This document shows positions 11,685 through 50,651 of a stretch of 64,000 nt of DNA, one piece after another (the first letter of the stretch is position 1; every line of letters starts with the position of its first letter). The notes below the pieces were generated by a model. That model was given only the letters and a program-made list of their open reading frames with translations. It was not told where the DNA came from and did not search any database. Made by a program: the position numbers and the translations under genes. Location: the NCBI GenBank assembly GCA_963827385.1, contig CAWHAR010000002.1:223656-287655 (forward strand). The letters are read 5' to 3'. This stretch comes from an uncultured Actinomycetes bacterium. Its GTDB lineage: Bacteria > Actinomycetota > Acidimicrobiia > IMCC26256 > DASPTH01.

Positions 11685-11766
11685 CAGCGGCCCCGAAGGG
11701 CCGCTGACCTGGGTGTTCGTGGAGCGGACGACGGGATTCGAACCCGCGACCCTCACCTTGGCAAGG
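11685..11766. repeat. left direct repeat of the island: displaced 3' half of tRNA-Gly plus downstream hairpin (att-like)
   Basis: 11720-11766 is identical over 47 nt to 50605-50651 (CCA end through the anticodon loop of tRNA-Gly). The hairpin AGCGGCCC-CGAA-GGGCCGCT (11686-11705) matches the one at 50571-50590 with the same 14-nt spacing. No 5' half of a tRNA follows. Confidence 0.85.
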
Positions 11767-12282
11767 CCGCTGGCGGGGTCCTCTGACCTGCGGAACATGC
11801 CTCTTGAGCGCCAACGAGCAGCCTTGTGGTGCTGGCAGTTGCTGGGCGTCCGAGGACGCTTCTCGATGAGCCGCGGACTTGGCGCGGACTTGGCTCTATG
11901 CACGCCCCTCCCCCATACGGCCGAGTGATGAGTTCCACCGCTTCGCTTGTCGAAGGCCATGACGCTGGCGTGCGTGGGCGGACCCGCACTAGAACGGGGA
12001 ATTTGCGCGGAGGAGCCCCCAGAATGGTCGCCTCGAAGCCTCGAACCAGTCTTGCTGCCGGTTGCCAACATCACGGTCACTCGGGGTCAACGATGCGGCT
12101 CGACACTCCGTCGGCTTGGCGAATGGGTCGGCCTCGCGAAGTGCAATACCGTGGTCTGCTGCGACGCCATAACGTTAATTGAACCAGCAAGCCTGGTTTC
12201 GTATACGGAGGTTTTTCCTTGACAAAGCGACCACTCCTGCCTCAACATCACGCCAGCGTCGGGTGCGTGCAGGCGTGTCCTC

Positions 12283-15200
12283 TTGATGAAGTCGAGGGTT
12301 GGGATGCATTCGTCGGGCCGGGGAAGCACTCGACGCACCATTGCGAGCCTCGTGGCGATGTTCGCAGCCGTCTCGGGACTCCCAGTGGTCTTCGTAGTTG
12401 CCTCGCAGTCGGCGGCATTCGCTGTCTCGTCGGGCAGCCAGACCTTCGTCTACACGCCATCCGGCCAGAACTTCGTAGTTCCGGCAGGCGTCACCTCCGT
12501 GGCAGTCGACGCGTTTGGGGCCCAAGGCGTGGGCAGCGGGGCCCCAGAGGCGGACTAGGTGCACGGGCGCAAGGCGTGATCGCTGTTACGCCGGGTGAGA
12601 CGCTGCAAGTCCGAGTCGGTCCCAGTGGCGGGCCAGCGCCGACCTTCAATGGCGGCGGAACAGGCGGGGCGTCGAGCTCGAGCGGCGGAACAGGAGGCGG
12701 CGCGAGCGATGTTCGCCGGTCACCGTATTCCCTCGCGGACCGCCTGATTGTGGCGGCAGGGGGCGGTGGTGGGGGCGCCCGTGGTTCCCTGCCTTCAAGC
12801 GGCCCAGGCGGATACGGGGGAACCGGCGTCCGTTGGGGGGCGACGGGACCGATGGACCGCATGGTACTAAGGCTTGGGCGTGACTGGTGCCGCAGGCGGG
12901 CAACCAAGTCTGGATGCCGACAGCTGCAATAACAACCACAACGACGTAGCAACGGCAGGCGCTTTCGGCCAAGGCGGCAGTGGGTGGAGTGCCTCTGCCT
13001 GCCTGGACCTAGGCGGTGGTGGGGGTGGCGGTGGTTACTACGGCGGTGGTGGAGGAGGCCGTTCCAGCGGCGGAGGCGGCGGGACAAGCTATGTGGAGGA
13101 GCCTCGATCAGCTCTATGACGCCCGGCGTTCGAAGTGGGTCAGGCCAGGTCGTCCTCTCTTGGGGCCAGTTGATCCCCTTTGGTGGAGGGCTTGCGACGA
13201 ACGAGACCTTGGGCGATGGCCCGTGCCCTGGTACTGGATCTCAGGTCAGTGTGGCGGCTCCGATCAACACGGCAACGGGGGCACTTTTGGCATACGTTCA
13301 CAGACCTCACCGTTCCTGGCCGTGGCGCGGCGCTTGAGTTGACCCGGACTTTCAACTCGACGGACGCTAACGAACGACAGTTGGTTCGGTATGGGTTGGT
13401 CGTCGAGTTACGACATGAGCCTCAATGTCCAAGGCGTGACGGCGACCCTCAAGATGGACGATGGCAGCCGCGTTACGTTCACGCAGGCCAATGGAACAGG
13501 CGCTTGGTCTGCACCGGCACGCTCGGACTCGACCCTCGCGGCAAACGGCGACGGAACCTGGACCGTGGTCTGCCACGCAACCGACACCTACGTCTTCGAC
13601 GTGACCGGTCGCCTGATAGCGAAGCGCGATCCGAATGGGTACACGACATCGATCTCCTACCCGTCGGGTCAAACTGTGGTCACCGACCCTGCGAGCCGCA
13701 CGCTTACCTTCGTGTTCAACGGCACACACGTGACGTCCGTGACGGACTCGGGGTTCGCCGGCTCGGTCGTTGACATACACCTACAACGGCTCGGGGGAGC
13801 TGACAGACGTCATCGACGTGGGCGGCGGTCATTGGGTATTCACCTATGACGGTTCGCATCGCATGTTGACGATGCGCACCCCACGATTCTTCGGTGACAC
13901 AACCACGACTCCGACGCCGGTGACAACGAACCACTACGACGGTCAGGGGCGCGTCGATTCGCAGAATGATCCACTGGGCCGGCAAACGAGCTTCGATTAC
14001 ACGACGGCACCAGGCTCGACGATTGTGACCGACCCGAAGACCAACAAGGTCCAATACACGTACCTGTACGGACTGCTCGTCAGCGAAACAAGGGCCTATG
14101 GGACGGCTCAAGCCGCGACGCTGGCAATACCTCTACGATCCGGTGTCCACCGCGATGACCAGCGTCGTCGACCCGAACAATCACATGTGGTCGGCGGGCT
14201 ACGACGCGGACGGGGAATCAGTTGTCGAACTCCGATCCGCTCACTCGTTCGACCAGCGCGACGTACAACGCGGTCAACGAACCGCAACGCAGACTGACGC
14301 CAAGAACGTCACGACGACGTCGACCTACGATTTGGCGGCAATCTGTTGACGAGCTCGACGCCCTGGGTGGAGGGTCCACCGAACACGAACAGAGTGATGA
14401 CGTATCACTACGACGACGCAACCCATCGTGGTGACATCACCTCAGTGACGGACCCGGACAACAAGACGTGGGTGTACACCTACGACGGCGCAGGCAACCT
14501 GGCATCGGCCGCCGACCCGCTCGGGAACACCTCACAAATTCCGTTATGACGCGACGGCCGGCGGACGGCGGCGATCAGTCCACTTGGCACCGCCGGCGGG
14601 GTGTCGTGCGCGACCGCCTCTCCGGCACCGTACACGATCTACTTCACTCGCAACGCGTACGGCGCCACGCTGACCGTGACTGACCCGCTCGGGCATCAGT
14701 CGGTGCTGACCTACGACGTGGACCAGAACCTCAAGACGTCGAAGGATCCCGACAACAACCAGACCACCTACGTCTACGACCCGGCGGAGCAACGCACGCA
14801 GATCACTCGTCCCGATACGACGACGTTGAAGACCGACTACTGGCCCGACGGCACGCTCAAGTCACAAACCGACGGCGCGAACCAGACGACCAGCTACGCC
14901 TACGACGCGTCGGCGCATCTGACAACCGTCACCGACCCACCGCCGGGTGACCAGCACAGCTACACGGCGGTTGGGGACATGCTCGCGAACAGGACCCTGG
15001 TGGGAACTGCGCCGCGACCCCTAAGACGGGGTGCACGACGTACGGCTACGACCCCGCGAACCAGCTGACATCGGTCACCTACTCCGACGGCGTCACGCCG
15101 AACGTATCGAACATCGGCTACGACAACGACGGGCAACGCACCGCGATGACCGACGGCACCGGCAACTCGAGCTGGGTGTGGGACTCGCTGCACCGCATGA

Positions 15201-17322
15201 GTATCCACGACGGGCGCGGGTACGACGGTCGGGTACAGCTATGACCTCGCGGCAACCTGACAGATTGCGTATCCCGGCACGACCGGCACCGTGACCGCGC
15301 GGTACGACGACGCCGGCCGACTCCACACGGTCACCGACTGGCTCAGCCACACCACGACGTTCAACTACAACGCCGACAACTTCCTCGACGTCGCAGTTGT
15401 ACCTAACACAACGACCGCAACGTTCACGCCCGACGGTGCCGACCGGCTCATGGGCATCACCGACACCAAGGACGAACACCCTCGCGTCCGTTCACCTACG
15501 GCCGTGACAACGCAAACCAGGTCACCTCTGTCACCTCGACCGGCGTACCCGACCGACAACCACTCCTACAGCTACACCCAGCTCAACCAGCTCAAGACCC
15601 AAGACGCCAAGCAACTACAGCTACGACAACGCTGACAACCCCACCGGCCTCGCCGACGGCCCAACCCAGGCGTTCGACACTGCGAATCAGCTCACCGGCG
15701 CGACAAGCACATCACCTCGTCGGCGCCGCTGGTGGCGGAACGCCAGCACCCCGAACACCGTGACGGTCAACCTGCCCAGCGGCACAACGACTAACGACCA
15801 GATCGTCGTCGGCCGCCACCGTGCAGAAGAGCCAGACCGTCAACACGCCGACCGGTTATACGGTCGTCGGCACGTACACGTCGGGAAACCCAACGCTGAC
15901 ACCAAGACGGTCGTATTCCGCAGGACTGCCCAATCCGGCGACACCAACGTCGCTGATCACCTTCGGCGCCAGCATCGCCAAGAGTGTCGATCGTGGCCGT
16001 GTACCGCGGCGTCAACCCCAACACCCCGTCGACGTCCCCTCGAGCGCCGGCAACGACAAGGTCACCAGCATCGCCGTGCCGTCGGTCACGACAACGGCCG
16101 CGAACGAGCGACTCGTCAACATCGCCGGTGAAGCCAACGCCACCGGCGCCTGGACCGTCCCAACCGGATGACCAGCCGCAACACCGCGACCTTCGGAAAC
16201 AGCAGCACCGTCCTCGCCGACCAGACCCTCGCCGCAGCCGGCGCCACCGGCACCCGGACCGACACCTTCAGCACCAAGGCCAACCTCGTCGGCGTGCTGC
16301 TCGCCCTCAAGCCCGCACGACCCTACGGGTACGACCCGCGGCAACCGCACCACAGTCACGCCCGCAGGGGGCTCACCGACGACGCTCGGCTACGACCAAG
16401 CCAACCGGCTCAAGAGCTACGGCACCACCGCCACGTACGGCTACAACGGCGACGGGCTCCGCAGAACAAGACGTCGCAGGCACCACGACCCAACAAACCT
16501 GGGACGTCGCCGAAGGCTACCGCTCGTTCTCGCCGACGGCACCACGACTACGTCACGGGGCCCTGCGGACTCCCGCTCGAACAGATCAACGGCACCACCG
16601 TCCTCTACTACCACCAAGACCAGCTCGGCAGCGCCCGCAGCCCTCACCGACAGCGCTGGCAACATCGTCCTACATACACCTACGATTCCTATGGCAAACT
16701 CACCGCAGCATCGGCACCACCCCGAGACGCCCTTCGGATTCGCCGGTCAATACACCGACCCGGAGACTGGGATTCAGTACCTCCGTGCTCGGTACTTCGA
16801 TCCCAGCACGGCCAGTTCTTACCCGAGATCCCGCAACGACCTACACCCGAGGCGTGTACGCATACGCCGGCGCGAGTCCCTGTAACGCATCCGACCCTTC
16901 TGGCTACTGCACGGAAGAGATCTCCTCGATCTCATCCTGTGTGGACGGGTTCTGCCACAACCCGTTGACACGCGTGCTCATCACAGTCGGCAGCATCATT
17001 CCGTCGGCTCAGGGAATACGCGACCGGATACACGACGGATACTGCGATTCGATACTTGGCCGCTAGAGGCTTCGAAAGCGCAGCCCGCATCGCAGGAAAG
17101 GTCTCGACCATCGTTGCGGTTCTCGGCACCACAGCCGATGTGCTGTGCGGCGGGCTGAGTTCCCTCAATGCACTCAGCGAGCTATTCCAAGGCTCACGCT
17201 CGATCAACACAACCCCCTATCCCGATTCGAGCTCTCCAACTGGACAAACCTATGAGAGCGGCAGTGCGTCTGGCCCATACATGACTAACGAGGTGTTCCC
17301 ACAAACCCAACATCATCCTTGA
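12283..17322 (+). pseudogene. Rhs/YD-repeat toxin with signal peptide, glycine-rich N-terminal domain, RHS core and unknown C-terminal tip; many frameshifts
   Basis: The reading frame hops between all three + frames: ORFs 12283, 12219, 12874, 12984, 13180, 13391, 13770, 14098, 14346, 14601 and onward to 16691, 15984 and 17056. Signal peptide: RRTIASLVAMFAAVSGLPVVFVVASQSAAFA. Gly-rich domain: VIAVTPGETLQVRVGPSGG...GGGGGGGYYGGGGGG. Also PINTATGA and YD repeats (YTYDGAGNLASAADPLGN, YAYDASAHLTTVTDP). Core end is PFGFAGQYTDPETGIQYLRARYFDPSTA (16730-16813), then YAYAGASPCNASDPSGY, followed by a tail of about 140 aa. Confidence 0.8.
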
Positions 17323-18149: not shown

Positions 18150-19049
18150 TCACCCACCGAGAAGCTCGTAGCGTTTCCAATCGTGTGCACAGCGAGCGCA
18201 AAGAACCTTGCCGCTCGAAGATCGGACCTTGTGTCCATGCAGCCCGACACATCCGGCATCGCTCTAGCGACGACCAAGGACAAATTCCGTCGGGATACTT
18301 GTTGCTCAGCCGAACCCGAGTCGACCAACTTGGTCTCCCGATGGGCGATGGATCGCATTTTCAACGCATTCCTCTTCGATTAGCGATACACACATTGAAG
18401 TAGTCGATGCGGCCGGCAACGAGCGCGTGACCTCGTCGGCGCGGTGTCAGCAGACCCCGCCTGGGGTCCTTGACAGGCACACGTCGCAGGGCGACGCTCC
18501 ACACATCTAGATCTAGATGGCAGAGCGCCCGGAGCCGATACTCATGACTGATCGTCGTGTTGTCGCTGACCCGACGGGTGGCGTCTGGCACTTGCAACTC
18601 CGATGGGAGATCGTGAGCACCGCGGCGCTACAACGTGCCGTTGCTCGCGGAACGACCACACCCCAAAGCCACGGTGGAAACCGAGGGGTCGCGTCGGAGA
18701 CGGCACGAAGCCTCCGCACGGCCCGAGGCCCTTTTCCTCTGGGGCCTTGTGCCCCCAACTGAGTCGCAGCGATCGCACTCACGGGCGTGGGTCATCACTG
18801 CGGCTTCCGAAGGATCACTCCGGCAGCATCATGCATGGATCAGTGCCTCGTGGGACCGCATGGTGACGCTGTGCGAGACCTCGAAACGCTCGCAGAGCTA
18901 ATCGGCCAAGGCAAGATCGCTGTGGAATAGTTCCCGTCGCGGAAGGCCTACCGTGGGCCCATGACCGCCACGCTTTCACGTCCTGGCATCCGCAAATCCG
19001 CCAGACCTCACGAGCAGCCGCGGTAGCGAATTCGGATCGGCGTGGCCCG

Positions 19050-19362
19050 TCGCTCACGCTTCACCACTTGCGCATGCGACAAGGCGGCTGCCTTCCGCAG
19101 GATCTCCATGTCCATCTGCAGCTGCGCGTCGCTGACGCAGCCGACGGAGCTCGACACGTTCGGACTCGCTCAACGCTTCGGGATCGTGCGTCGCGTTCAC
19201 GACGCTGCTGATCGGCACGCACCCAGTTCGCCAACGTGTTGTCGCTGATCCCAAGACTCCTGGCGACCTCGGCACGAGACCGACCCGACGAACCGACCAA
19301 CTCGATCGCTTCACGCCGGAACTCGGAGCGGATACTTCGACGGACGACCCAACACGGGCTCC
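19050..19362 (-). mobile_element. IS3-family orfA (HTH transposase subunit) remnant, frameshifted; no orfB
   Basis: Pieces lie in three frames: GRPSKYP, then EFRREAIELVGSSGRSRAEVARSLGISDNTLANWV, then SESERVELRRLRQR, then AQLQMDMEILRKAAAL. No rve/DDE orfB was recognised downstream. Confidence 0.65.
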
Positions 19363-20012
19363 TTCCTCCAGGGCTTCCCCCCAGAATCAGGTGTCCACGC
19401 AACCGGGTTGACTCCACTTGTCCCAGCTCATGATTCGCCAGTCGGAATCGTCGGCTGACGGCCCACCGGCACGAACCCCCCAGGGGGTGATGCTGCCCCT
19501 CATCGGGGTCCCGCGCCTCCTGGTGACATTTGCGAACGCTGGCGTGTCGCTGCACGGCCACTCCAGAGCGGCAATCTGGCGTGCTCATCGGTGGGTGAAC
19601 CATTTCCAACTTTGCTCTGGAACTGCTGCGCTTCTCGGCTGGCTGCGCCACAATCTGTTCGTGAATCAGGACCAGTCCTCGAACCGGCAACCTCTCGAAT
19701 CACACCCATTCGACAACGATGGGAACGACCTCATCGCAAGGTTGAATTGGGTAGGCGGCGCTTTGCTCGTCGCAGCGATCAGCCTGATAGTTGGCGGGGT
19801 GGCCTACGCCAACTTCTTCACCGGTGCGTCACGCTGGGACTTCGTTCGGATCGCGGCGAGAACCGTGAGCCCCTGGGCAGCGTTGCTAACCCTTGCGGCG
19901 GCCTTGGCGTTCGCTGCCACCTTCAGCGGCCATCGATGATCTCGCCCCGGAGCGACCGCACTCCTGTTCGTGACAGCGTGCGTCGCGCGATCCAGTCGGC
20001 CGTGGAGGAATC

Positions 20013-20237
20013 ATGCTCGTCGGCCCGTACAGCGGCGCGGTCGTTGAGGGCCGACACACGCATCTCAGGGCGCCGAACGCAAACGACAGGGTCGTTTTCT
20101 ACGCGGCCGCCATCGGCGCGGTCGCACTCGTGGGCGTTGCACTGTTCATCGTCTGGTGGACGAGGAAGTCCAGGCGCACTCAGGAGGACAATGGTGCGTC
20201 GGTTGCTCCAAGCGAGATATCTGGAGCCACGACGTAA
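20013..20237 (+). CDS. small single-pass membrane protein (hypothetical)
   Basis: 74-aa ORF with a clear TM helix (VVFYAAAIGAVALVGVALFIVWW) followed by a basic stop-transfer (TRKSRR). It may belong to a larger frameshifted membrane protein starting near 19700. Confidence 0.35.
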   Translation: MLVGPYSGAVVEGRHTHLRAPNANDRVVFYAAAIGAVALVGVALFIVWWTRKSRRTQEDNGASVAPSEISGATT

Positions 20238-20320
20238 CAGCCGTTCGGCTCGGAAGCTCGGGGCACATTTACGCACGCTGGGGTGATCGACGAGGCCGTC
20301 CCTGGAACCGGCGTGCCCCG

Positions 20321-21150
20321 TCAGACCTTGGGTGCTGAAAGTGCGACAGCGGCGTCGGCCGCGAGCCTGAAGAGGGTGTGGCGTAGTTCGCGCTCGCCAG
20401 TCCAGCCGCGTCTGGCCTGGATCATCGCCAGCGTAGACATACTCGCCGAACCGTGCGCCGCGAAACTTGGCGACCGCAAGAAGTGAAGCCGCCTCTTGTT
20501 CGACGACCATGCAGCCTTCGCGCGAGCGGCGCTCGCTGGTCGAGGGAGTTGAACGAAAGAGCGCGTCGGTAGTCCACGCTCCACCGGTCGTGTAGGGGAC
20601 GTAGGCATCGTCGGCGGTTCGACAAAGAGTGTCGACGACGTCCGGTTGAGTGTGCACCCAGCGGGACCGAGCTAAGTAGTGATACGAGGTCCCCTCGTCT
20701 CGGAGTGCCGCGTCGATCACGACGATCTGCCCTTGGACTGTCTCTGGCGCCAGCGCTCCTGCACCGCCACACGCAACGATCGCTGGACCCCGCTGCGATC
20801 ACGCGTTCCATGACAACCGTGGCGCAACGGTCCTCCCTGACCGGGATAGAACACGGTCAGAGGAACGCCGTCCCAGTCGATTTCCCACAGTGGTTGCAGG
20901 CTCGGGAGCGCTGCGAGCTGGCTACCGTCCGACGTGAAGTCCGCGATGACATCGGGCCAGAAGCACGCGACGCCCGCGACCGGTGGACCCAAGTCGGTCT
21001 TGCAGACGCGCTGGTTCAAGGATTGCCGAACCAGAGTTGTCGTGTTCGAAAAGAGGGCACGGCTCGGGCTCGACGCTCACCACGCCAGTCTTGTCCTCAC
21101 TGCCGCAGTTCCAGGTGTCATTAACGAACGCTGGGGTGGGGTGGGGTGAT
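20321..21150 (-). pseudogene. nucleoside phosphorylase (PNP_UDP_1 family), multiple frameshifts
   Basis: Fragments lie in ORFs 20922..21359, 20717..21019, 20422..20811, 19923..20720 and 20321..20608. Strings: WDGVPLTVFYPGQGGP, MERVIAAGSSD, VIDAALRDEGTSYHY, GGAWTTDALFR, REGCMVVEQEAASLLAVAKFRG. Confidence 0.6.
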
Positions 21151-21219: not shown

Positions 21220-21877
21220 ATGACTTCTGCGTCTCGCGACGGGCACACAGGACACGTCGAAGCTGGCCAGCCGCCGGTTGCTCGATGGTCGGATCTACCA
21301 GAGCCACAGGCCAGCCTCGCCAGTGGAGGATTCGAAGCCTGGCAGGCGGGAGATCTCAACGAGGCGAACAGAGCGCTGACTCTGCTTCTCGAAGCCGCGG
21401 AGGCGGTACCGGAGCCGGACGGCCTCTTTCACTCCTCCACCTTCTGGCCTGCGTCGCGTTCAGCGCAGCGAACTATGCGACGTCGTGTGCGCTCCATACG
21501 AAGGTGCTGGTCATGTGTGAGACGATCGGCTTCCTCGGCGGGCAGGCTTCGTCGCTCTTCGACCTTGCAATGATCGATCAAGTCGAAGGAGACACCCGCC
21601 TGCACGCCACCGCTTCGAGTTGGCGCGTGCCGCATTCGAGCAGGGTGGTTACAGCGATCGCATTGGCATCGTCGATGCCGCTCCTGTCACTTGGTTCGCA
21701 GAAAAACGGTTGACTGCTCGGGTGACATTGCCGAACGCTGGGGTGCCGGACGATCTGTCTCTAGACGAGCGCGGACATCGACGTGAACGCCGCTGCGCGA
21801 AGGCGTTCAACGGTCCGGGCAACGGCCGATGGGTAGGTCGCCAGTTCCTGCATGCTTCGCCACCCGCGACGCTATGA
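21220..21877 (+). pseudogene. TPR-like hypothetical protein, frameshifted
   Basis: Three consecutive + frame pieces (21220, 21285, 21620). Contains GGFEAWQAGDLNEANRALTLLLEAAEAV and LARAAFEQGGYSDRIGIVDAA. Weak assignment. Confidence 0.35.
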
Positions 21878-22400: not shown

Positions 22401-22649
22401 GCACAAGACAAGCGCGAGCCCCGATCTCCGGTAGCAACCCAACTCTGTTGGCACACCACAGCTTCTCGCCAACCTGGCGGTTCACCTGCTCCCAGGGCTC
22501 AAGGGACATTCCCGCACCCTGGGCTGCGCAAGCGGAGGCGCTCCAGAACGGGCGATCTGTATCACGAGTTGCGACCACGTCACTACGGTTGCGTCGTGGA
22601 CTCAGCGCAACCGTCCGATCGTCCGACCATCGTCACTCAACTCACCGCA

Positions 22650-23493: not shown

Positions 23494-24294
23494 GTGACTG
23501 ACGACGTTGAGGTGCTACACGGTGGTGTAGCGAACGCGGGCCAGGTCGTGCGCGTCGGCGACGATGTGCTGCGACCAGCGCCATCAAATGGCGCGACCAT
23601 CCACCGCTTGCTTCGACACCTCGTCGACGGCGGCATCGGCATCGCGCCCGAACCGCGAGCCCTTGCCGACGGGCGAGAGAAGCTCGGTTTCATCCATGGC
23701 GATGTGCCGGTACCTCCGTATCCCGATTGGGCGCAGTCGGACCGGGCGTTGGCGTCAATCTCGGCACTGATTCGAGCGTTGCACGACGCGTCGCGCACCT
23801 TTGCTCATGAGAGCGGCGACGCTTGGAGTACCGAGATGGCTGACGAGCGCCCCGGTGGCTCGGTGGTGTGCCACAACGACGTGTGCTTGGAGAACGTCGT
23901 CTTTCAAGGCGGCGTCGCCGTCGCGCTCCTCGACTTCGACTACGCCGCGCCGGGCAGGCCGAGCCACGACTTGGCCTGCTTCGCCCGCATGTGCGTGCCC
24001 ATCGATGACGAGACGAGCCGCGCAAACCTCGGGTGGAGCGCAGTCGATGGTCCTTCGCGTTTGCGCCTGGTCGCCGATGAATATGGGTGCACAGCAACCG
24101 AGCGCAGAGAGATCTTGGAGACACTCGACCGACAGATCGCGCGTGGTGGCGAGTTCGTGCTGCGTCACGTCGAGGCGGGCGAACCGGGTTTCGTTGCGAT
24201 GTGGGCTTCGATCGGCGGAATGGCGCGCTTCGACCGTCGACGAGATTGGTGGAGCTCATACCGTGACGACTTCGCCACGGCGATGGACGCGTAG
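23494..24294 (+). CDS. phosphotransferase enzyme family protein (APH/choline-kinase fold)
   Basis: Intact 266-aa ORF. LHGGVANAGQVVRVGDDVLRP at the N-terminus, catalytic loop VVCHNDVCLENVVF and LLDFDYAAPG. Confidence 0.8.
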   Translation: MTDDVEVLHGGVANAGQVVRVGDDVLRPAPSNGATIHRLLRHLVDGGIGIAPEPRALADGREKLGFIHGDVPVPPYPDWAQSDRALASISALIRALHDASRTFAHESGDAWSTEMADERPGGSVVCHNDVCLENVVFQGGVAVALLDFDYAAPGRPSHDLACFARMCVPIDDETSRANLGWSAVDGPSRLRLVADEYGCTATERREILETLDRQIARGGEFVLRHVEAGEPGFVAMWASIGGMARFDRRRDWWSSYRDDFATAMDA

Positions 24295-24566: not shown

Positions 24567-25397
24567 ATGGCTTCTCGCGCTCTGTCGGGGGGCATGACGA
24601 ACGACGTGTTCGTCCCGGTCGAGCGTCCGGACCTTGTCGTGAAGGTCTTTCAAGGCGGCCGCGCCGACGAGCCGGAGCAGGAATGGGACGCGGCCTGATG
24701 GCTCTCACGGGCTCCGGGATCGTGCCGGGACCCGGTCCACTTCGAGCGCAGCAGTCCAGCCGTCGTTGTGATGACGCGAGTGCCCGGTTCGGCCCTGCAC
24801 GCGGGGCGCTTGCACAGGAACACGCCCACGCGATCGGCAACACACATCGCCTCGTGCACGCGGCCGTCCCGGAACACCGACGAATCCCCGCCCACACAGA
24901 GCTGCGCAGCACCCAGGCTATCCCTTATGCAAGACAGACCAACCCGACCTTGGCGCACACCACCGACGCGGACGGATCTCGTCGCAACAGCATGGCGGGC
25001 AGCTCGGGCGTGGATCGCTGACGCCGACATCGATCGCCTCTTTGCCGCCGAGCGACTTCGGTTCTGCCGCGGCGACCCGAACGCGAGCAACTACCTGTGG
25101 AGCGACGACAGCCTCATGCTCATCGACTGGGAGAACAGCGGCTACAACGACCCGGCCCTTGAGCTTGCGGACATGGCCGAGCACGCGAGCACTCGGACTC
25201 TCGGGCAAGACTTCTGGAGTTCCGTTGCTGACGCCACCGAACTCACCGCCGAAGACCGAGCACGCGTCGTGCACGGTCGACGGTTCATGGCGTGCTGCTG
25301 GCTCGTCATCATCGACAGCAGACACCGCCAAGGGCGACCAACAACCGTGACACCTGAAGAACAAGCCCATCGCACGCTCGCCACACTCGATCTCTGA
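24567..25397 (+). CDS. phosphotransferase enzyme family protein, frameshifted
   Basis: ATG at 24567 (MASRALSGGMTNDVFVPVERPDLVVKVF). The middle lies in ORF 24497..25021. The C-terminus lies in ORF 24768..25397 (FCRGDPNASNYLWSDDSLMLIDWENSGYNDPALELAD). Confidence 0.6.
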
Positions 25398-26268: not shown

Positions 26269-26547
26269 AGCCGCTCCATGCCCGAGAGCTGCTGCGCAAA
26301 ACGGCGAAGCCGAAGTTCGTTGTCCCCCGCCGAGACGAGCGAGCGTGACCACGGCGCCCGAGTGCCCGCGCCTGTCGAGGGGAGCGTGCTAGAACCTCGC
26401 CATGCAGGTACAAGGTGCGGATCCGCGGCGCGGCGCATGGCGATGAGAGATGAATGACGCGACGCAATGCGCCGTCGTCGCCATCGCGATCGCCACAGGG
26501 TCCATGGTGTTCGCGGCCGGGCAGTCTTGGTCGACAGGAGCCCGAGC

Positions 26548-27222
26548 ATGAACGACGATTTCGCGACCCGAGTGAACCAGTTCGTCACAGGCCCCGAAAC
26601 GAAACGAGCAGCCGAATCGCTAGAGGAGTACCTCGACAGATACAGCGGCAGGCACTTCGAACAACTCGCCGACTCTGACGGCGACCACTTCACCGCGAAT
26701 GACATCGTGGCGGTCAGCATGCTCAGCGTGACTGTTCCCGCCGAAGCAGCGAGCTGGCTCCTAGGCGACGACGGCGCGGATCAAACATCGGCGTTACTTC
26801 AGCTGATCCAGCCCGCGAATCTCGAGATCTGGGATGACCGCGCCGATCTGTCGAACGGCAGCCCCGCCTCGCAGCTCTGGCGATCCGTGAAGGATCTCAA
26901 GGGGGTTGGGCGAACGACTGCGAGCAAGCTGCTCGCGACCAAACGTCCTCACCTGTTCCCGATCTACGACAGTGTGGTGAGCGCTGCGCTCGGTATCGGG
27001 CGTCGCGACGACTGGCAGCTCTGGCAGACATTCCTGCGATCCCCTGAGGCTGAACCGGCGAAGGACGCAGTACAGCAGCTCCACCATGAGGTCCCGAGAA
27101 GCGAACACCTCTCGACACTCCGCACGCTCGACATCATCATCTGGATCCGCGTCCACGGCTACAAATTCTCGAAACAGCTCTCTCACTTCGCGGATGTTCC
27201 AGCACCGGATCCCAGCAGCTAA
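26548..27222 (+). CDS. hypothetical protein (DUF6308-like by recollection)
   Basis: ATG at 26548 preceded by GACAGGAG. 224 aa, balanced composition (FTANDIVAVSMLSVTVPAEAASWLL...VGRTTASKLLATKRPHLFPIYDSVV). Confidence 0.55.
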   Translation: MNDDFATRVNQFVTGPETKRAAESLEEYLDRYSGRHFEQLADSDGDHFTANDIVAVSMLSVTVPAEAASWLLGDDGADQTSALLQLIQPANLEIWDDRADLSNGSPASQLWRSVKDLKGVGRTTASKLLATKRPHLFPIYDSVVSAALGIGRRDDWQLWQTFLRSPEAEPAKDAVQQLHHEVPRSEHLSTLRTLDIIIWIRVHGYKFSKQLSHFADVPAPDPSS

Positions 27223-34804: not shown

Positions 34805-34851
34805 CGGCCGATGGCACCGGGCTCTCTGTCGTCCGGTGTACTGAAGGTCCC

Positions 34852-35628
34852 CTAGCCGGACGCGTCGCCGCATGCTGCGTGCAGCAGAGCAGCGTCGGCC
34901 GCGACGCCGACCTCCCCGTCGTACGAGCGGAGTCGCGCGCTGACCGGATACATCGACGGGTGTGCCAGCGCGACCGCCCGACAGCGATGTCCGTCGATCG
35001 TGACAGCGGCAACGTTTATGTTCGATCTGCGCGACCATACGGCGAGGTCTGGACTGAGCCGGGCGCAGAATCGCCGAGCGGGCGCGCCCAAAGCCACCAG
35101 CACCGACGGGCGCATCCGGTCGATCTGGAGACGCAAGAATCCCTCGCACCACGCGACGAACGTGGGATCTGACTCGCCCGGGAACCGGCCCGTCGGGCCG
35201 CCCTTCTCGATGAGACCGACGTACGCGTTCGTGAAGAAGCAGTTGGTCGGCTCCACACCCGCGGCGGGTAACAGGCGGTAGAGGCCACGCCAGGTCGCCA
35301 TCGGGTGCTCGCGATCACCATGAGCGCGGCCTTGTGCGAGCCGGTTCTGGTAGGCGGTGAGCACGTCGAGGTTGTGGCCGACGAACATCACGCCACCGAA
35401 TGGGAATGGTGGCAGCCCAACCTGGGAGGGCGGCGCCTCGCAGTAGAGCCCGGGACCGGCGGCGAAGAACGCCGTGCCATCTACCGCTTCCGGAACCGCG
35501 ACGACACCATCCGCATACCCGTCGAATTCGCCGAGCACGGCACGGAACTCGTCGACAGGATGCACACCCTCATCATCACATCGGACCTCGTGCAGCGCAC
35601 GCCGAGCCCACCCGAGCAGGCACGCCAT
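34852..35628 (-). CDS. uracil-DNA glycosylase superfamily protein
   Basis: Intact 258-aa ORF. Motif-A-like VMFVGHNLD, FFTNAYVG and motif-B LAHPSMY (HPS), as in the UDG superfamily. Confidence 0.65.
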   Translation of the reverse strand: MACLLGWARRALHEVRCDDEGVHPVDEFRAVLGEFDGYADGVVAVPEAVDGTAFFAAGPGLYCEAPPSQVGLPPFPFGGVMFVGHNLDVLTAYQNRLAQGRAHGDREHPMATWRGLYRLLPAAGVEPTNCFFTNAYVGLIEKGGPTGRFPGESDPTFVAWCEGFLRLQIDRMRPSVLVALGAPARRFCARLSPDLAVWSRRSNINVAAVTIDGHRCRAVALAHPSMYPVSARLRSYDGEVGVAADAALLHAACGDASG

Positions 35629-36688: not shown

Positions 36689-38450
36689 TCAGGGGTCCAC
36701 CTTCTCGATGCGCCAGGTGTTCGCTTGTCCGCGTCGAGGGACCTGAATGAGCTTGAGACCAGCGGCGATACGGTCCCGGCGCGCTCGGAGGTACGCACCG
36801 ACCGAGTTTTGGTTCCACTGCGACACATGCGGTTCCACATGGCCTCGGAGCTGTCCGTCCTCGACGAGTTCCAACGCCGTGAGCTCCTGGTCGCCGTACG
36901 CGACGGACCAGGCGCTCAGGAACTCCGCAAGCTCGTCACGTTCGGGGTCCTCTCCCGTGTCGAGGTCGCTGAGGTTGTCGAGGAACCCAGACACCCCGGC
37001 TGTCTGGAGGAGCCCACCGATCACCGAGTCCCACGATTCGTAGGATCCGATCCGTCCCGGCTGTCCGAGCGGACTCCCTTGTTGGACCCACCACTGGACG
37101 ATCACGAGTGAGGCCCACACCAGATGACGGCGGTTCTCCAGCGCCCAACCCGGCAGAGAGTGTCGCCACTGCACGCCGGGGCCAGGTCCGGTCCGTCGGG
37201 CGGGCTCCTCGACTTTGGCATCGAGACGAATCGGCACGCAACGACGTTTGAGATCGGTCCCCGGGGTTGCGTTGTTGGCGGTGAGCGTCCACAGCTGCGT
37301 GACCGGCACGTCAATGCTCGCGTTGACGCCCAAGAGGCGATCAGTCCAGCGTGCCTCGGTGAGCGCCTGTTCGAGTACCGCCGACTTCACTGTGCCCTTG
37401 ACGTTGTCCCACTTGATTGCCGGTGCGCCCTCACGCAGCTTGGACGTGACGGCCTTGCGGCGCTCGCTCTCGTTGTCGGGAAACGAGTACGAGGCGACCA
37501 CTCCACACGCGGGGGCGAGGAGGCAGTCGACGAGTTTGCCCTTCCCCGTACCTGGCTCGGGTGCACCAACCCAGTGCAGCGGTGTCGGGCCTTGAATCAC
37601 GTTGCGGACGAACGGAGTGAACAACACACTCAGTGCGTTCGCACGGTCAGCGTCGCTCACGAAGGGAAAGTCGCCGAGCAGCTCATCGAGGAGCCAGCGC
37701 TTGGCGAGCACGAGGTCCCCCACGGTGATGGTCTCAGGCAGCTTCAGGTTCCGAAGCTCCCGAGGCGGTCGGTAGTACGTGCGAGTGCCGCGGGCCATAG
37801 CCCTCCGTGGATTGCAAGGCCCCGTTCGAGTCCAACACCGGGACCGTCACGACACGATCGAGAAAGGGGAAGGGCGCGTTGCTGGCGCTCCTAAGCACCG
37901 CCGCGGCAAGAGTCGCGGGCGGATCGATGTGGCGACGTTCCAGTTCAGACTTGCGTTCGTCCGCCTGGACCCACACCGCAGCCTCAGCCAGTCGCCGTCG
38001 CAGTGCCAAGGTGGTCAGTGTCGCGACGGTGCCATTGTCAGCGACGGTGACGAGTTCGTCGCCACGTCGGAACGTCTCGGGAGCGCCATACTCGGCATCT
38101 CCCAGCGCCGACAACGCCGGACCGACGAGCGCGAACTGTGTGGTTCCCACTTCGATCCTCGGCAGCGTCAGGAACCTCACCGCTGTCCGGGGGAAGCGCG
38201 GATCACGACTCCAGAAGTGGGCGACCTCGCAACCGCGTCCCGAAGTACAACGCACCTCAATCAGGCGCGGTGACCGCAACGTGTACTTGACGCTCTTCTC
38301 AGCGTGGCAGTTCGGACACTGAATGAACTCGTCGGGCTGATTCGCTAACCACGCGCAGTAGTGGTCGGCGTCATCCAGATCGAGGGGCCCTCCGTCGTCG
38401 TCCCAATCATCGGGATCACCATCCTCAGGAATCTCGATCTCTTCACGCAA
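36689..38450 (-). CDS. replication protein of the integrative element: zinc-finger N-domain plus P-loop NTPase (primase/helicase-like), one frameshift
   Basis: ORF 37734..38450 (CPNCHAEKSVKY...VPVLDSNGALQSTEGYG) joins ORF 36689..37798 (RGTRTYYRPP...WVGAPEPGTGKGKLVDCLL, Walker A) near 37790-37800. Confidence 0.6.
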
Positions 38451-39077: not shown

Positions 39078-39254
39078 CTAGGCGTTGACCCTCGTGTCCA
39101 CCCACGCGTCGACGTCCTCGCGCCGGTAGCGCAGGTGGCGGCCCATCCGGGCTGCTTGGGGGCCGGTGCCTTGGTAGCGCCACTGGTACAGGGTCGCGAC
39201 GGGGATGCCCAGGTAGGCGGACACGTCCTGGATGGTCAACAGCGGGTCATGCAC
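39078..39254 (-). CDS. excisionase-type helix-turn-helix DNA-binding protein (HTH_17/MerR-like Xis)
   Basis: Absent from the ORF track (58 aa). Manual translation from GTG 39254 (GGAGA upstream): VHDPLLTIQDVSAYLGIPVATLYQWRYQGTGPQAARMGRHLRYRREDVDAWVDTRVNA, stop at 39078-39080. Confidence 0.7.
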   Translation of the reverse strand: MHDPLLTIQDVSAYLGIPVATLYQWRYQGTGPQAARMGRHLRYRREDVDAWVDTRVNA

Positions 39255-40915: not shown

Positions 40916-41771
40916 GTGAGGCCGATGACAGCGAAGAAGCGGTTCAAGCAACATGTGCGCGACCGTGCCCGCAAGACGGGCGAGTCGTACACAACCGCGC
41001 TTGCACACGCTCGTCGTCGGCCGGCGGAGGAGCACTCTGTGCTGTACGACACCATCGGAGCTACATACATCCAGACCCGACACACCGAGCCGCGAATCGC
41101 CGCCCGAATCGTGGGCAGCCCTCGGGGATGCTGAAACCGTGCTGAACGTCGGTGCGGGCACCGGGTCCTACGAGCCACTCGACCGCTACGTCCTGGGGGT
41201 CGAACCGTCGAAACTCATGCGCTCGCAGCGAGCCCGAGGCGCGGCACCGTGTATGGCGGGATCGGCCGAGAGCCTGCCGTTCGATGATCAATCCTTTGAC
41301 GCGGCGATGGCGTTCTCAACCATTCATCACTGGCGGGACCCGATCGCTGGCCTGCGCGAGATGCGACGCGTGGCCCGCCGCGTCGTTGTGCTCGCATTCG
41401 ACACGAGTAAACCGAACCAGTTCTGGCTGACCCGTGACTACCTGCCCGAGGTCGTGGGCTTGAAGGGGTTCAGTCTCCTCGCATCACTGCCTGAGTTAGC
41501 GAATGCGATTGGGGCCCGCATGGAACCAGTGCCTATTCCATGGGACTGCGCTGACGGTTTCTACGAGGCCTACTGGCGTCGACCCGACGCATACCTCGAC
41601 GAGAACGTTCGCCGCGGCATCTCGACCTGGACCGCAGTCGGTACCGATGTAGAAGAGAGGGCGGTGCGCAAGCTGCGCAATGACCTGGACTCGGGCCGTT
41701 GGTCGGAGCGCAACAGCGACCTCGCCGACATGGATGCCGCCGAGCTTGGCGCTCGTCTCCTTATCGTCTGA
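40916..41771 (+). CDS. class I SAM-dependent methyltransferase, one frameshift
   Basis: The N-terminus MTAKKRFKQHVRDRARKTGESYTTAL...VLYDTIGATYIQTRHTEPRIAARI lies in ORF 40916. The body lies in ORF 40953..41771 (VLNVGAGTGSYEP, DDQSFDAAMAFSTIHHW). The junction is near 41110-41125. Confidence 0.7.
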
Positions 41772-45166: not shown

Positions 45167-45283
45167 AAGCCCATTCTTCCTCGTCCGGACGCGACGGTCG
45201 GTAACTCCAAGCCTTACTGCGGCTTACACCAAGATGATCGTGACGTGAGGAGCCAGCGGCGCTCGGGTCAACAGCACGTCATG

Positions 45284-45375
45284 CACGCCACCATCCGCAC
45301 CACCTCCGACCGCTACGGCCACCTCTACCAAGAAGCCCGCGAACGCCTCCGCGACCACCTCGACCATACGTACGC
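45284..45375 (+). pseudogene. remnant copy of the integrase 3' end (copy B)
   Basis: About 92 bp aligning to 40503-40594 with few mismatches. It encodes HATIRTTSDRYGHLYQEARERLRDHLDHTY, and no upstream integrase body is present. Confidence 0.8.
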
Positions 45376-45571
45376 GGATGCGCGACCGGTTGCGAGAGCG
45401 CCTGACACACCACGTGGCACGCACCAGCGGGCCGTCACCGATCGAAGTCTCAAGCAGGCACTTCGGGGAGGCTTGTGGTCGCGACTAGGGCCCGAGCGCG
45501 TGCAGGTTCTTAACAAAGCAAGCGTCGACAAGTTGCTCGCGGGTCAAGCACGGGTGCGGTATCACTATCCG

Positions 45572-46351
45572 ATGGACGACCGGGAGATTCCGCTCGCGGG
45601 CGGGAACCTCAACCCTTCTGTGGTGCGCGTGGGCGAGACGGTTCGTCGAACGGCCGGGCCGTGGACTCCTGCCGTGCACTCGCTCCTTCGGTATCTCGCA
45701 GGGGTCGGCTATCCCGCGCCCGTGCCATTCGGTATCGACGACAGGGGTCGTGAGGTGTTGTCGTTCGTCGACGGCGTTGCCGTGCACCCGGACCACGTGG
45801 AATTGATGGCGCATCTTCCTGCGCTCACCCGGGCTGCGAGTTTGATCGCCGATTATCACGACGCCCAACAGCACTTCATCCCACCCGCTGATGCGCAGTG
45901 GCAAAACAACGGACGTGATCCGTCTGGATCAGAGGAGGTGTTGGCGCACAACGACTTCGCTCGTGGAATCTGATCGTCGGACCCCGATGGGTGTACATCG
46001 ACTGGGACCTCGTCGCTGCCAGGCCGTCGCTATTGGGATCTCGCATGGGCGTTGCATTCGCTCGGCGGCCTCTGGCCCGGAAGTGGGTTCTCGGACACGG
46101 ACACGGTTGCTCGGATCGTCGCGTTTTGCGATGGGGCCCGTGTGCCGCTTCAAGATCGAGCGCAGCTTCTCGGCACAGTCGTAGAGCGGACCGCCTACTG
46201 CGCGGAGGAGATTCGGCGTCGCAGCGAGGCGAGAGAACCCGCATATGTGCGGATGATGGACGACGGACACGCCGAGGGTTGGGCGCAGGGCTCGACTCAC
46301 GTGGAGCAACACCTAGAACTATGGACGCGACTTCTTAACGGCGACGGCTGA
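45572..46351 (+). CDS. phosphotransferase enzyme family protein (APH-like), two frameshifts
   Basis: ATG 45572: MDDREIPLAGGNLNPSVVRVGETVRRTAGPW...EVLAHNDFA. Then WVYIDWDLVAARP (ORF 45991). Then WDLAWALHSLGG... to the stop at 46351 (ORF 46052). Confidence 0.65.
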
Positions 46352-46563: not shown

Positions 46564-47377
46564 GTGATGGACCATCTCGCGCACACCAGTACGGACCGTT
46601 GGGACGTGGTCGCCGACTCCTACGGCATTTCGCCAATGATTTCCCGACTCGCCAACGGGCTGGTCGATGCGGTGGGGATTGCAAGTGGAGAGTCGGTCGT
46701 CGACGTGGGAACGGGCACTGGGCTGGCGCTGTTTGCGGCGGCGCGACGAGCTCGGGACGGAGTGGCGGTCGGCGTCGATCGCAGCTACCAGATGTTGAAG
46801 GTCGCGTCGAGCGCGATGTCGAGCCCAACAATGGTCGTCGGCGGTCTTGTCCGTGCCGACGCACTCTCACTTCCTCTCCGGTCCTCAACCGTCGACGTCG
46901 CTTTGGCGGCGTCCGTGTGGCAGTTCGTCGGTTACTCCCAAGACGCTCTTGTCGAATGGTCGCGGGTGCTGCGTCCCGGCGGCCGTCTGGGCATGTCAGT
47001 GCCCGGCGGCGGCTCCGAAGCAAGCATTCCAGGCGACCTCACCGCCAAGTACTTCGACCGCCTCACACCGTCCGCGCAGGCGGACTTCGCATCGAGGGCC
47101 TCGTCGGCTCGCGCCCAACCTGATCTGTGCGAGACGCTCACCGAAGCGGGCTTCTCGGACGTGGAGGTGCTCCAACGCAGCTGGAACGATGTCCTGTCCG
47201 GGCCGGAAGACTGGTGGGCGCTCCAGTGGACCCACGGCTCCCGGTTCTTTCTTCAAGGTCTCGAGCCCGACGCGGCTGAGCGCTCTCAAAGCAGAGGCGC
47301 TGGATCGGCTCGGGCGCTCCGACGATGGCGGAGTGACAGTCACCACCAAGGTGACCTACTGCGTAGCGCGTCGCTAA
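46564..47377 (+). CDS. class I SAM-dependent methyltransferase, C-terminal frameshift
   Basis: ORF 46564..47427 with VVDVGTGTGLALFAAA and VLRPGGRLGM. The tail continues in ORF 46847..47377 (SALKAEALDRLGRSDDGGVTVTTKVTYCVARR). Confidence 0.7.
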
Positions 47378-47423
47378 GCGTCACTTGTAGTGGAGGAGGC
47401 AGCGGTGACTGTGTCGGATCGTC

Positions 47424-47999
47424 GTGACTCCCAGTTCCGAAAGCCGGTCGACGCCAGGTATCGCATTGAGTGAGCGTGTTCGAGTGGACGAGGTCATCAC
47501 CGGTGCGGAGATGGAACTGCGCCGCTGGATGCCGTCCGATCGCGAGGCGCTGGCAGAAATCGTTACCTCATCGCTGCCCCACATCGCGACGTACATGCCA
47601 CAGGCCGCGACGGAGCTCGCCGACCCCGCAGCGTTCCTCGCGCTTGCGAGTCGACTGTGGGCTGCCGGGTCCGTCTTTGCGTACTCGATTGTTCGCGCCG
47701 GTCGAGTCGTCGGCCACATCACGCTGACTCCAGAGAGATCGGGTGCCGTAGTGGGCTATTGGGTTCGTTCTGAGGACGTCGGGCTTGGCTACGCCACGGC
47801 CGCGATCGGTGTCCTGGCCGACGCAGTGTTCTGCAGCACAGACATCATTGAGCTGCGTGCCGACTGCAATGTTGCGAATGCCGCGAGCGCGCGCGTGCTC
47901 GCCAAGGCCGGCTTTCGCCTCGCGGGCCGGCGCTCGTGGCAGCCCCGCACCGAAGCCGAGGCGCCTGAGGAACTTCTTTGGGTCCTCGATCGATACTGA
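47424..47999 (+). CDS. GNAT family N-acetyltransferase (RimJ/RimL-like)
   Basis: Intact 191-aa ORF. GYWVRSEDVGLGYATAAIGVLADAVF and NVANAASARVLAKAGFRLAG. Confidence 0.8.
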   Translation: MTPSSESRSTPGIALSERVRVDEVITGAEMELRRWMPSDREALAEIVTSSLPHIATYMPQAATELADPAAFLALASRLWAAGSVFAYSIVRAGRVVGHITLTPERSGAVVGYWVRSEDVGLGYATAAIGVLADAVFCSTDIIELRADCNVANAASARVLAKAGFRLAGRRSWQPRTEAEAPEELLWVLDRY

Positions 48000-48881: not shown

Positions 48882-48898
48882 TCACGGAGGCGAATCGG

Positions 48899-49831: not shown

Positions 49832-50391
49832 TCAGTGTTCCACGGTCGCGGCAGACGAGTTTCCCAGGATCGGCGCGTTGCAGTTCGAGACCTTCCAGTG
49901 ACCGTGATGGAGCGTGAACTCGACCCAGTTGTCGTTCCCGACCTTCGCGACCGGGAGGTTGTACACCACTTGGGCCTCGCCGTGGTTGGACGTCAGGTTG
50001 CGCAGCTCGACGTCACGGATACGAACGCGGTCAAGCGCGACACCCAGTTCGTGTTGCATCGACGCTCGCAAGCCACGGAGATAAAGAGCGGCCTGAGCCT
50101 TTGACAACGACACGCCCGTCGAGTTGCGGTGCATTCCGGGCCTTGCAGACGGCGAATTTCGTCCGCGCTTCCCGTCAGGAACGTTTGTGCCCACGCGACT
50201 GCCGCGGCTCGCACCTTCGACGTCGATTCAGCCGTTGCAGGAGCATCCGTCGTCGGCGGCGTCGGCGACAAAGAGCCGGAGTCCGACACCGAGCTGCTCG
50301 CTCTCACCGGAAGAGTCGAAGCGAACAGGGTGATCAGCCCCACCATGGCGATTAACGCGACTGATCGGCGTACCTCGGACCAGGACATCAC
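49832..50391 (-). CDS. secreted hypothetical protein, one frameshift
   Basis: The signal peptide lies in ORF 49993..50391 (VALIAMVGLITLFASTLPVRA). The C-terminal domain lies in ORF 49832..50194 (LSKAQAALYLRGLRASMQHELGVALDRVRIRDVELRNL...FTLHHGHWKVSNC). Confidence 0.5.
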
Positions 50392-50569
50392 CGCACTCTG
50401 TCACGCTGCGCATCTCTGGTCACGACACGTCCACTCGGTCACTGCGCCGCTGCGGGCATCCACGCGGGAGCCTGACTCCACACGCCGGACGGCTCCGTAG
50501 AGAGCCCGCGAATCACGGCCACGGACTTTCCGCGGACTTGGTGCCTGACTACGGAGCCCCGACGCGGAG

Positions 50570-50651
50570 CAGCGGCCCGAAGGGGCCGCTGACCTGCAGT
50601 TCTCTGGAGCGGACGACGGGATTCGAACCCGCGACCCTCACCTTGGCAAGG
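50570..50651. repeat. right direct repeat of the island (3' half of the intact tRNA-Gly plus its downstream hairpin)
   Basis: Counterpart of 11685-11766. It has the 47-nt identical core 50605-50651 and the hairpin AGCGGCCC-GAAG-GGGCCGCT at 50571-50590. The 14-nt spacer is diverged. Confidence 0.85.

Follow-up and report, generated by a model that had tools for sequence, protein, structure and literature searches.

Mycobacteriophage L5 targets a tRNA-Gly gene with a 43-bp common core (PMC2884959, Table 3), and phage Mx8 carries its attachment site, attP, within its integrase gene intP (PMC6070905). Here we describe a genomic island at a tRNA-Gly(GCC) gene in a 64,000-nt stretch of contig CAWHAR010000002.1 from an uncultured Actinomycetes bacterium; this whole stretch is referred to as the window. 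By target and host phylum, L5 is the nearest studied integration system, in that both it and the island have an actinobacterial host, a tyrosine integrase, and a core of ~45 nt which covers the 3' part of tRNA-Gly and is rebuilt on integration (PMC2884959). With the Islander tRNA-gene (tDNA) islands (PMC4383910) the window shares a tyrosine integrase, a regenerated tRNA with a displaced 3' fragment in direct orientation, an anticodon-centred attP, and tandem arrays at a single tDNA. The island is of an ordinary kind, albeit unusually well delimited, and changes no concept: that elements enter tRNA genes, accumulate there in tandem, and decay is well established. Our analysis indicates that it was most probably built by serial integration of small integrase-carrying elements at tRNA-Gly(GCC), followed by decay.

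The tRNA-Gly(GCC) gene on the minus strand is the sole tRNA gene in the window (ARAGORN; Rfam, 71.8 bits), and nothing else in the window reached the Rfam gathering threshold. Its sequence is identical in the window and in two related loci, L036 and L038. As a sequence-only reading of this DNA had claimed, a segment near the left end of the island repeats the 3' part of the tRNA perfectly (11720-11766 and 50605-50651, 47/47 nt, BLAST E 6e-22). The repeat spans tRNA positions 30-76, i.e., from the anticodon stem and loop to the CCA end, and in an extended form covers 90 nt at 87% identity (11677-11766 and 50562-50651). That reading allowed that the left copy might belong to a second, complete tRNA gene; however, a scan of 9600-12000 gave zero tRNA-like matches at E<=1, so the copy at 11720-11766 does not belong to another tRNA gene. 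GC-rich stem-loop hairpins accompany both copies on the tRNA strand (11685-11706, -27.1 kcal/mol, z -4.8; 50570-50591, -24.3 kcal/mol, z -2.7). They are real and lie within 1 nt of where the sequence-only reading had placed them, and the spacers between hairpin and core do diverge between the left and right copies, but the distance from hairpin to core is 13 nt, not 14 nt. A profile of G+C content, which the same reading had proposed as a check, gave 0.62-0.65 between the 47-nt repeats versus 0.67-0.71 outside. An intact tRNA and a displaced 3' copy in direct orientation therefore bound an island, and these results support both 47-nt copies as genuine attachment (att) cores of a tyrosine-integrase island.

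One intact tyrosine integrase gene, int1, is present between the repeats, and the catalytic set of its product is complete (R200, K238, H304, R307, H330, and Y340, which are invariant columns in the alignment). Its relatives in a protein search had 68% identity (P0122) and below. We analysed the DNA context of the next four integrases after P0122, which are 52-58% identical to int1 and come from five loci (L036, L037, L040, L041, and L042). At all five, the 3' ends of the plus-strand integrase gene and of a minus-strand tRNA-Gly(GCC) are 0-90 nt apart, in constant orientation; in L042 the integrase adjoins the tRNA 3' core at the contig end rather than a full tRNA. Relatives of int1 at 5/5 loci thus use tRNA-Gly(GCC) or its core, which bears out the earlier proposal of a tyrosine-integrase island in tRNA-Gly. 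A more distant relative at 34% identity (L027) adjoins tRNA-Thr, and a metagenome scan with int1 returned only short contigs with distant integrases. Orphan cores were found 7.1 kb (L036), 3.9 kb (L040), and 10.0 kb (L041) from the tRNA, with repeats of 45-49 nt, and these three are intact reference elements of 3.9-10 kb.

A viral origin was also considered and rejected, as no integrase in IMG/VR was more than 40% identical to int1 and the tRNA-Gly core was present in 0 of the 80 loci kept. As a separate observation, six IMG/VR predicted viral contigs (L046-L051) contain an identical 45-nt tRNA-Gly(GCC) 3' fragment with no complete tRNA. Other elements that share this target may have their attP or junction sites at these fragments; the one adjacent large open reading frame (ORF) tested, L051 4406-5530, is unrelated to int1.

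The relatives also reveal the architecture of the att sites. In the integrase-side arm, repeats of 9-11 nt form a tandem pair with 11-nt spacing, followed by ~65 nt that contain the hairpin and then by the core, and on the far side the core is followed by ~105 nt and then by an identical tandem pair. The repeat differs between elements but matches across both arms of each, being CGCGGACTT in the window and L036, CGCGGCCCA in L040, and GACGGGACCGA in L041; in L037 one arm is visible, with the repeat CGCGGCCTG. Only two tandem arm-repeat pairs occur in the window, versus 0.24 expected by chance, and they lie where the relatives have them (Table 1), the pair at 50520-50539 being 65 nt from the tRNA core. 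The arm architecture at 11872-11891 and 50520-50539 indicates that both ends of the 38.9-kb unit are genuine element ends. The L5 integrase uses arm-type sites, and the arm repeats look like these. We infer that they are putative arm-type sites of a heterobivalent integrase, and that int1 itself may act on these att sites.

In three of the relatives, the integrase ORF (L036 10001-11215, L037 7423-8700, and L040 10001-11032) extends across arm repeats, hairpin, and antisense tRNA core and stops at a TGA just past the core, with the C-terminus ...ERTTGFEPATLTLAR. Since these ORFs cross the att site, their C-terminus would differ after excision. The ORFs of int1, P0122, and P0128 end ahead of the att region, so the overlap is no family-wide feature and may be incidental.

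Integrase relics were sought by tblastn with int1 and related integrases, plus blastn, and two 3' remnants were found downstream of int1 (remnants 2 and 3, Table 1). Remnant 2 matches the 3' end of int1 with 86% nucleotide identity over 127 nt (92% over 100 nt). At the tRNA junction, an 85-nt stretch on the island side (50520-50604) shows homology to the L036 integrase tail (aa 372-404) and is the relic of a fourth integrase tail. From int1, the two 3' stumps, and the tail relic it follows that at least three integrase genes, and probably more, were once present at this locus. This agrees with two points of the sequence-only reading, namely that the island is an accretion of several events and that its only intact integrase sits about 10 kb from the tRNA (the end of int1, at 40628, is 9,976 nt away). 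We infer that the DNA between the 47-nt repeat and the tRNA junction (unit B, 11767-50604, 38.8 kb) goes back to no fewer than three or four related elements, and that the junctions between them were lost by deletion.

Alternatively, unit B could be one 38.9-kb element, such as an integrative and conjugative element (ICE), a prophage, or a large island, which integrated once, with later internal insertions and rearrangements responsible for the integrase stumps and for the 10 kb that separate int1 from the tRNA. The perfect outer 47-nt repeat, the arm repeat CGCGGACTT shared by both ends, and the lack of internal att fragments are all compatible with such a history, but three distinct integrase 3' ends (83-92% nucleotide identity) plus a tail relic cannot stem from one gene, and the intact relatives measure 3.9-10 kb and have the integrase adjoining the tRNA. 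Gene content argues in the same direction. We scanned 40 island ORFs with Pfam and subsets of them with PHROGs (10 ORFs), PADLOC, and NCBIfam. No Pfam domain that would point to conjugation, whether of an FtsK/TraSA-type translocase or of a relaxase plus type IV secretion, was present in the 40 ORFs, with some small ORFs outside the scan. Capsid, portal, terminase, and tail proteins were likewise not detected by Pfam in these 40 ORFs or by PHROGs in the 10; the phage-type matches are integrase, excisionase, and primase-type only. We consider a single integration unlikely and favour the origin of unit B from several related elements. A direct repeat bounding the int1 module alone was not found. 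Inverted repeats or target duplications of an insertion sequence (IS) were also looked for at 48.1-50.5 kb as an explanation for the gap between remnant 3 and the tail relic, and none was convincing.

The left boundary of the inserted DNA was defined with the help of an empty site. Homologues of the CoA-transferase gene (8268-9617, minus strand) adjacent to the island led to the contig L038, in which the CoA-transferase protein is 88% identical and the gene order is rubrerythrin, DUF3501, dUTPase, tRNA-Gly(GCC), hairpin trailer, CoA-transferase. The right flank of the window has the matching order FUR, rubrerythrin, DUF3501, dUTPase. L038 is colinear with window positions 53257..51693 and 9755..8500 at about 85-92% nucleotide identity, and window positions 9520-9755, comprising the tRNA end, the trailer, and the start of the CoA-transferase gene, form one continuous alignment with L038 2203-2420. 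By our estimates, the dUTPase genes align over their full length at about 85%, and the CoA-transferase genes are about 90% identical up to the L038 stop codon. This colinearity, together with the flank match, identifies L038 as the unoccupied allele. The empty site that the sequence-only reading had suggested looking for in relatives therefore exists, but it joins the tRNA to the 9.7-kb flank of the window and not to the 11.6-kb flank.

Positions 9699-9755 hold a third partial copy of the junction, which that reading had not noticed. Its parts are a hairpin, a spacer, and 9 nt from the start of the core, and it aligns with 11672-11728 at 84% identity (E 1e-6). No tRNA stands ahead of this hairpin now, and it is decayed (-18.3 kcal/mol, z -1.3). 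Since the empty site joins at 9755, the inserted DNA amounts to about 40.9 kb (9756-50604) instead of ~38.9 kb, and its outermost left boundary is 9755, not 11685. The sequence-only reading had taken one of the two copies that it compared to be the native tRNA tail. By the alignment with L038 neither is; the native tRNA trailer is the copy at 9699-9746, and the trailer at 11672-11719 is internal. There are weak indications that the latter derives from an older element. The sequence beside the orphan core (11636-11719) may be a more decayed integrase tail and hence the putative integrase-side end of such an element, with trailer similarity judged from alignments alone, without shuffle statistics.

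The DNA between the outer two att copies, 9756-11719, is absent from L038, where no thioesterase gene lies between the tRNA and the CoA-transferase gene. Being both bounded by att copies and missing from the empty site, it would represent a second, older unit (unit A), which is likely to be foreign in origin. It encodes an acyl-CoA thioesterase and a protein with a truncated-haemoglobin-like domain. The globin ORF (9761-11386, minus strand) is 541 aa long, has no proper stop codon, and runs antisense through the entire thioesterase gene, which suggests that the 3' end of the globin gene was lost by deletion. The sequence-only reading had divided the locus into accessory DNA between the repeats and housekeeping genes outside. 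The first half of this division stands, with Rhs, an IS3 remnant, nuclease-like ORFs, and int/xis/rep genes inside; the second fails for the thioesterase and globin genes, which are extra relative to L038. An SPFH gene on the other flank is likewise missing from that place in relatives. No unit has both its own tRNA fragment and its own integrase, as an Islander tandem array would: unit A is flanked by att copies left and right (the outer cut to 9 nt) and has no integrase gene, only a putative tail relic, and unit B has three integrase 3' ends and no internal tRNA fragment.

One could instead place the left boundary at 11720 and regard 9756-11719 as ancestral DNA that was lost in the L038 lineage, with 9699-9755 as a local duplication of the trailer. 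In favour of this are the host-like G+C content of 9756-11719, its metabolic genes, which fit the neighbouring CoA-transferase genes, and an identity of ~83% over 48 nt, counted on the alignment, between the orphan trailer and the native trailer of L038. However, 9747-9755 are the last 9 nt of the tRNA and run unbroken into the L038-like trailer and the start of the CoA-transferase gene, so that they resemble a displaced and later truncated att core rather than a duplicated trailer, and the L038 tRNA is intact there and free of scars. We judge a boundary at 11720 to be quite improbable and keep 9755 as the outer boundary.

Several observations weigh against the history proposed here. The empty-site allele is known from one relative only, L038; in more distant CoA-transferase relatives (72-75%), the gene is not adjacent to the tRNA and the neighbours differ, and no tRNA was found in L039, the one of these that was scanned, so that these loci are uninformative here. 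The G+C content of unit A is host-like, about 0.67-0.71 in the 2-kb intervals that overlap it, its genes are metabolic, and a similar thioesterase was found in CoA-transferase clusters of more distant relatives, which leaves a foreign origin of unit A likely but short of proof. At the inner junctions (int1, remnant 2, remnant 3, and the right end), neither tRNA fragments nor arm repeats were found in the window, so the number and borders of the inner units rest on the integrase stumps only. Neither int1 nor its closest relative P0122 has a match to Pfam Integrase_N_phage. Finally, the source is a metagenome assembly, and some of the "pseudogenes" could be assembly errors.

The last point leads to the question of whether unrelated metagenomic DNA was misjoined at tRNA-derived repeats. 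The sequence does come from a metagenome-assembled contig, of 1.13 Mb, and a flanking gene has a 1-nt indel relative to L038. Nevertheless, a repeat of 47 nt is not long enough to mislead a long assembly, the outer flanks on either side match a single relative contig, L038, and the att architecture is coherent at both ends. An assembly artefact is highly improbable, and serial integration with decay remains our reading of the locus. The features on which it is built, and the other genes of the island, are listed in Table 1.

Table 1. Features of the tRNA-Gly(GCC) island and its left margin (positions in the window).
Feature	Position	Strand	Basis and remarks
Ancestral attB remnant: native tRNA-Gly trailer with decayed hairpin (9699-9746) and last 9 nt of tRNA (9747-9755)	9699-9755	-	
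Acyl-CoA thioesterase, unit A	9776-10549	+	Pfam 4HBT_3, 4HBT_3C
Truncated-haemoglobin-like domain, unit A	10799-11098	-	Pfam Bac_globin, E 8e-8; residues 97-196 of ORF 9761-11386
Trailer beside orphan core	11636-11719	-	One decayed arm-like repeat CGCGGACAT (11647-11655, 64 nt from core) and intact hairpin 11685-11706; alignments
Orphan 47-nt tRNA-Gly 3' copy, att core at left junction of unit B	11720-11766	-	47/47 identity; not a tRNA
Putative tandem arm-type repeats CGCGGACTTggCGCGGACTT	11872-11891	+	105 nt inside island from orphan core; position and sequence as in L036 element
Rhs/YD-repeat toxin pseudogene	12219-17066	+	At least 6 ORF pieces by frameshifts and stops; Pfam ALK_LTK_GRD, DUF6531, RHS_repeat on separate ORFs; translations
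IS3-family OrfA remnant, no OrfB after it	19008-19690	-	Pfam HTH_Tnp_1; translations
Nucleoside phosphorylase gene fragment	19923-20720	-	Pfam PNP_UDP_1, profile positions 94-196 only
Two partial APH-family phosphotransferase ORFs	23494-24294, 24768-25397	+	Pfam APH, partial matches
DUF6308 protein	26467-27222	+	Pfam, E 6e-43
MrcB_N-domain protein (McrB-like DNA-binding N-terminal domain)	30542-31633	-	Pfam, E 2e-32
ORF with PD-(D/E)XK-like C-terminus	31799-32827	-	PADLOC RTasPDDEXK, E 1.5e-9; phrog_34041
DUF5677 protein	33668-35152	-	Pfam
UDG-superfamily protein	34852-35628	-	Pfam
Primase-helicase C-terminal-like protein, Walker A motif	36689-37798	-	phrog_19930 "DNA polymerase/primase", E 3e-38; translations
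Zinc-finger ORF, overlaps primase-helicase-like ORF	37734-38450	-	Replication module 36689-38450; translations
Excisionase-type HTH_17 protein (xis/AlpA-like)	39078-39254	-	Pfam HTH_17, E 3.5e-15; phrog_66 "excisionase"
Intact tyrosine integrase int1, 370 aa	39516-40628	+	Pfam Phage_integrase (PF00589, E 2e-25), SAM_3, Int_M
SAM-dependent methyltransferase, cargo	40953-41771	+	Pfam
Integrase remnant 2	45269-45463	+	Covers last ~38 aa of int1, continues along L036 integrase tail; tblastn, blastn, alignment
Methyltransferase, cargo	46564-47427	+	Pfam
GNAT acetyltransferase, cargo	47424-47999	+	Pfam
Integrase remnant 3, about last 30 aa	48053-48145	+	83% nt identity to int1
Integrase-side arm, right junction	50520-50604	+	Tandem arm repeats CACGGACTTtcCGCGGACTT (50520-50539), hairpin 50570-50591, 13-nt spacer
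Intact tRNA-Gly(GCC)	50605-50680	-	ARAGORN, Rfam; 3' 47 nt (50605-50651) form right-junction att core

The genes at 30.5-40.6 kb appear intact, in contrast to the decayed left half of unit B. They include the int-xis-rep module, in which int1 and the HTH_17 gene are divergently transcribed and the replication module also matches phrog_10537 (E 2e-57). This int, xis, and primase-helicase content and the 4-10 kb size of the relatives would fit the layout of a phage satellite or tycheposon-like element. Among the cargo, the MrcB_N protein is a possible component of a modification-dependent restriction system, although it had no PADLOC or NCBIfam match. The cargo as a whole was also considered as a defence system and rejected, since PADLOC gave one weak PD-(D/E)XK match and NCBIfam none for ten hypothetical ORFs. 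The region from 40.6 to 50.6 kb contains, beside the integrase remnants, two methyltransferases, a GNAT acetyltransferase, and ORFs without assignment.

Further observations concern the body and edges of the island. Just downstream of remnant 2, a frame at 45580-45973 (plus strand) looks like the N-terminal part of an APH-type protein (...VVRVGETVRRTAGPWTPAVHSLLRYL...) by eye, unconfirmed by profile search; if it is one, it is the third APH-like piece in the island. The L036 element, too, has an APH gene just beyond its boundary. In the decayed part of the island, a motif of ~25 nt, GGTGACATTnnCGAACGCTGGGGTG, occurs in five copies on the plus strand (19522-19546, 20261-20285, 21114-21138, 21721-21745, and 22502-22526), spaced 600-850 nt apart and all within 3 kb, against 0.14 matches expected. 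One intergenic copy each is also found in two related contigs, L019 (10975-10992, minus strand) and L020 (3176-3193, minus strand), and the motif could act as a promoter or operator or mark the edge of a cassette.

On the flanks, an SPFH/Band 7 gene (50773-51636, plus strand) separates the dUTPase gene from the 5' side of tRNA-Gly. The dUTPase and tRNA genes are direct neighbours in L038 and L041, and L040 has two luciferase-like genes in this place; SPFH relatives at 88-89% identity occur in unrelated contexts. The 5' side of the tRNA is thus variable as well, and integrase att sites do not account for how this came about. The SPFH gene was also tried as an anchor for empty sites and abandoned: its relatives on genome contigs are at most 60% identical, with tRNA-Gly in 0 of the 6 loci scanned, and the relatives at 88-89% (L018 and L019) are not syntenic. 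The CoA-transferase gene on the left flank (8268-9617) has a 1-nt deletion near 8680 relative to L038 which shifts the frame and gives a replacement C-terminal extension of ~118 aa, overlapping the convergent gene 7042-8439. This deletion could reflect either a real pseudogene or an assembly indel.

We propose that tRNA-Gly(GCC) serves as the chromosomal attachment site for small integrative elements with a heterobivalent tyrosine integrase. Our model of a single integration is drawn from the anatomy of the locus and the lambda/L5 paradigm. The integrase would bind the tandem arm-type repeats on both attP arms and core sites around the tRNA anticodon stem-loop, where strand exchange would take place. 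Each element would bring its own 45-49 nt of tRNA 3' sequence with a terminator hairpin, so that the tRNA would stay intact, and the old tRNA 3' part would be moved to the far end of the element. As attB would be regenerated at each integration, later elements would enter there and displace earlier ones outward. The older units would then have been eroded by deletions, an IS, and point decay, leaving at least two repeat-bounded units, namely unit A as a 2-kb stump (9756-11719) and unit B (11767-50604) with a complete int-xis-rep module, two integrase 3' stumps, and the tail relic at the tRNA junction. The complete arrangement of arm repeats and core is preserved at the outer attL and attR, and the 38.9-kb array could thus still excise as one.

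Putting these parts together raises a broader possibility, which we regard as doubtful in its entirety. The elements may belong to an undescribed family of 4-10 kb, tycheposon- or satellite-like and cargo-shuttling, that is dedicated to tRNA-Gly(GCC) in Acidimicrobiia-like soil actinobacteria, with a lineage-specific "code" of arm sites and, in some members, Mx8-like rewriting of the integrase C-terminus, while the whole 38.9-kb array would still be movable by int1 and xis in the manner of a cis-mobilizable element (CIME).

The locus provides a clean worked example, in an uncultured actinobacterial lineage, of a tRNA gene as a lasting dumping ground for mobile DNA, and it offers an empty-site reference, intact reference elements of 4-10 kb, and a graded series of decay. 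The covarying arm repeats allow testable predictions of integrase specificity, and the family could yield new tRNA-Gly-targeting integration tools for high-G+C actinobacteria.

Compared with known systems, the locus differs from L5 in that int1 is only about 30% identical to actinophage integrases, the core sequence is another one, and the elements are 4-10 kb long with no virion genes seen. Relative to the Islander arrays (PMC4383910), the inner units here have lost their fragments, and the outermost fragment is 9 nt long. A change of the integrase 3' end by integration, as would occur in L036, L037, and L040, would be shared with Mx8 (PMC6070905), whereas int1, P0122, and P0128 end before the att region. 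In the accretion of ICEs, integrative and mobilizable elements, and CIMEs, as in ICESt1/ICESt3 of Streptococcus thermophilus (PMC5704250), composite islands likewise have several att copies and may move together; in our case the host phylum and target are others, no conjugation or mobilisation genes were found, and the att sites inside the island have been lost. The tycheposons of Prochlorococcus (bioRxiv 10.1101/2020.12.28.424599) also belong to another host phylum, and the elements described here are tied to one tRNA, tRNA-Gly(GCC). The resemblance is in layout: both are small and insert at tRNA genes, both combine a tyrosine recombinase and a replication module with cargo, and in both, successive integrations displace older elements and leave fragmented integrases and partial tRNAs behind.

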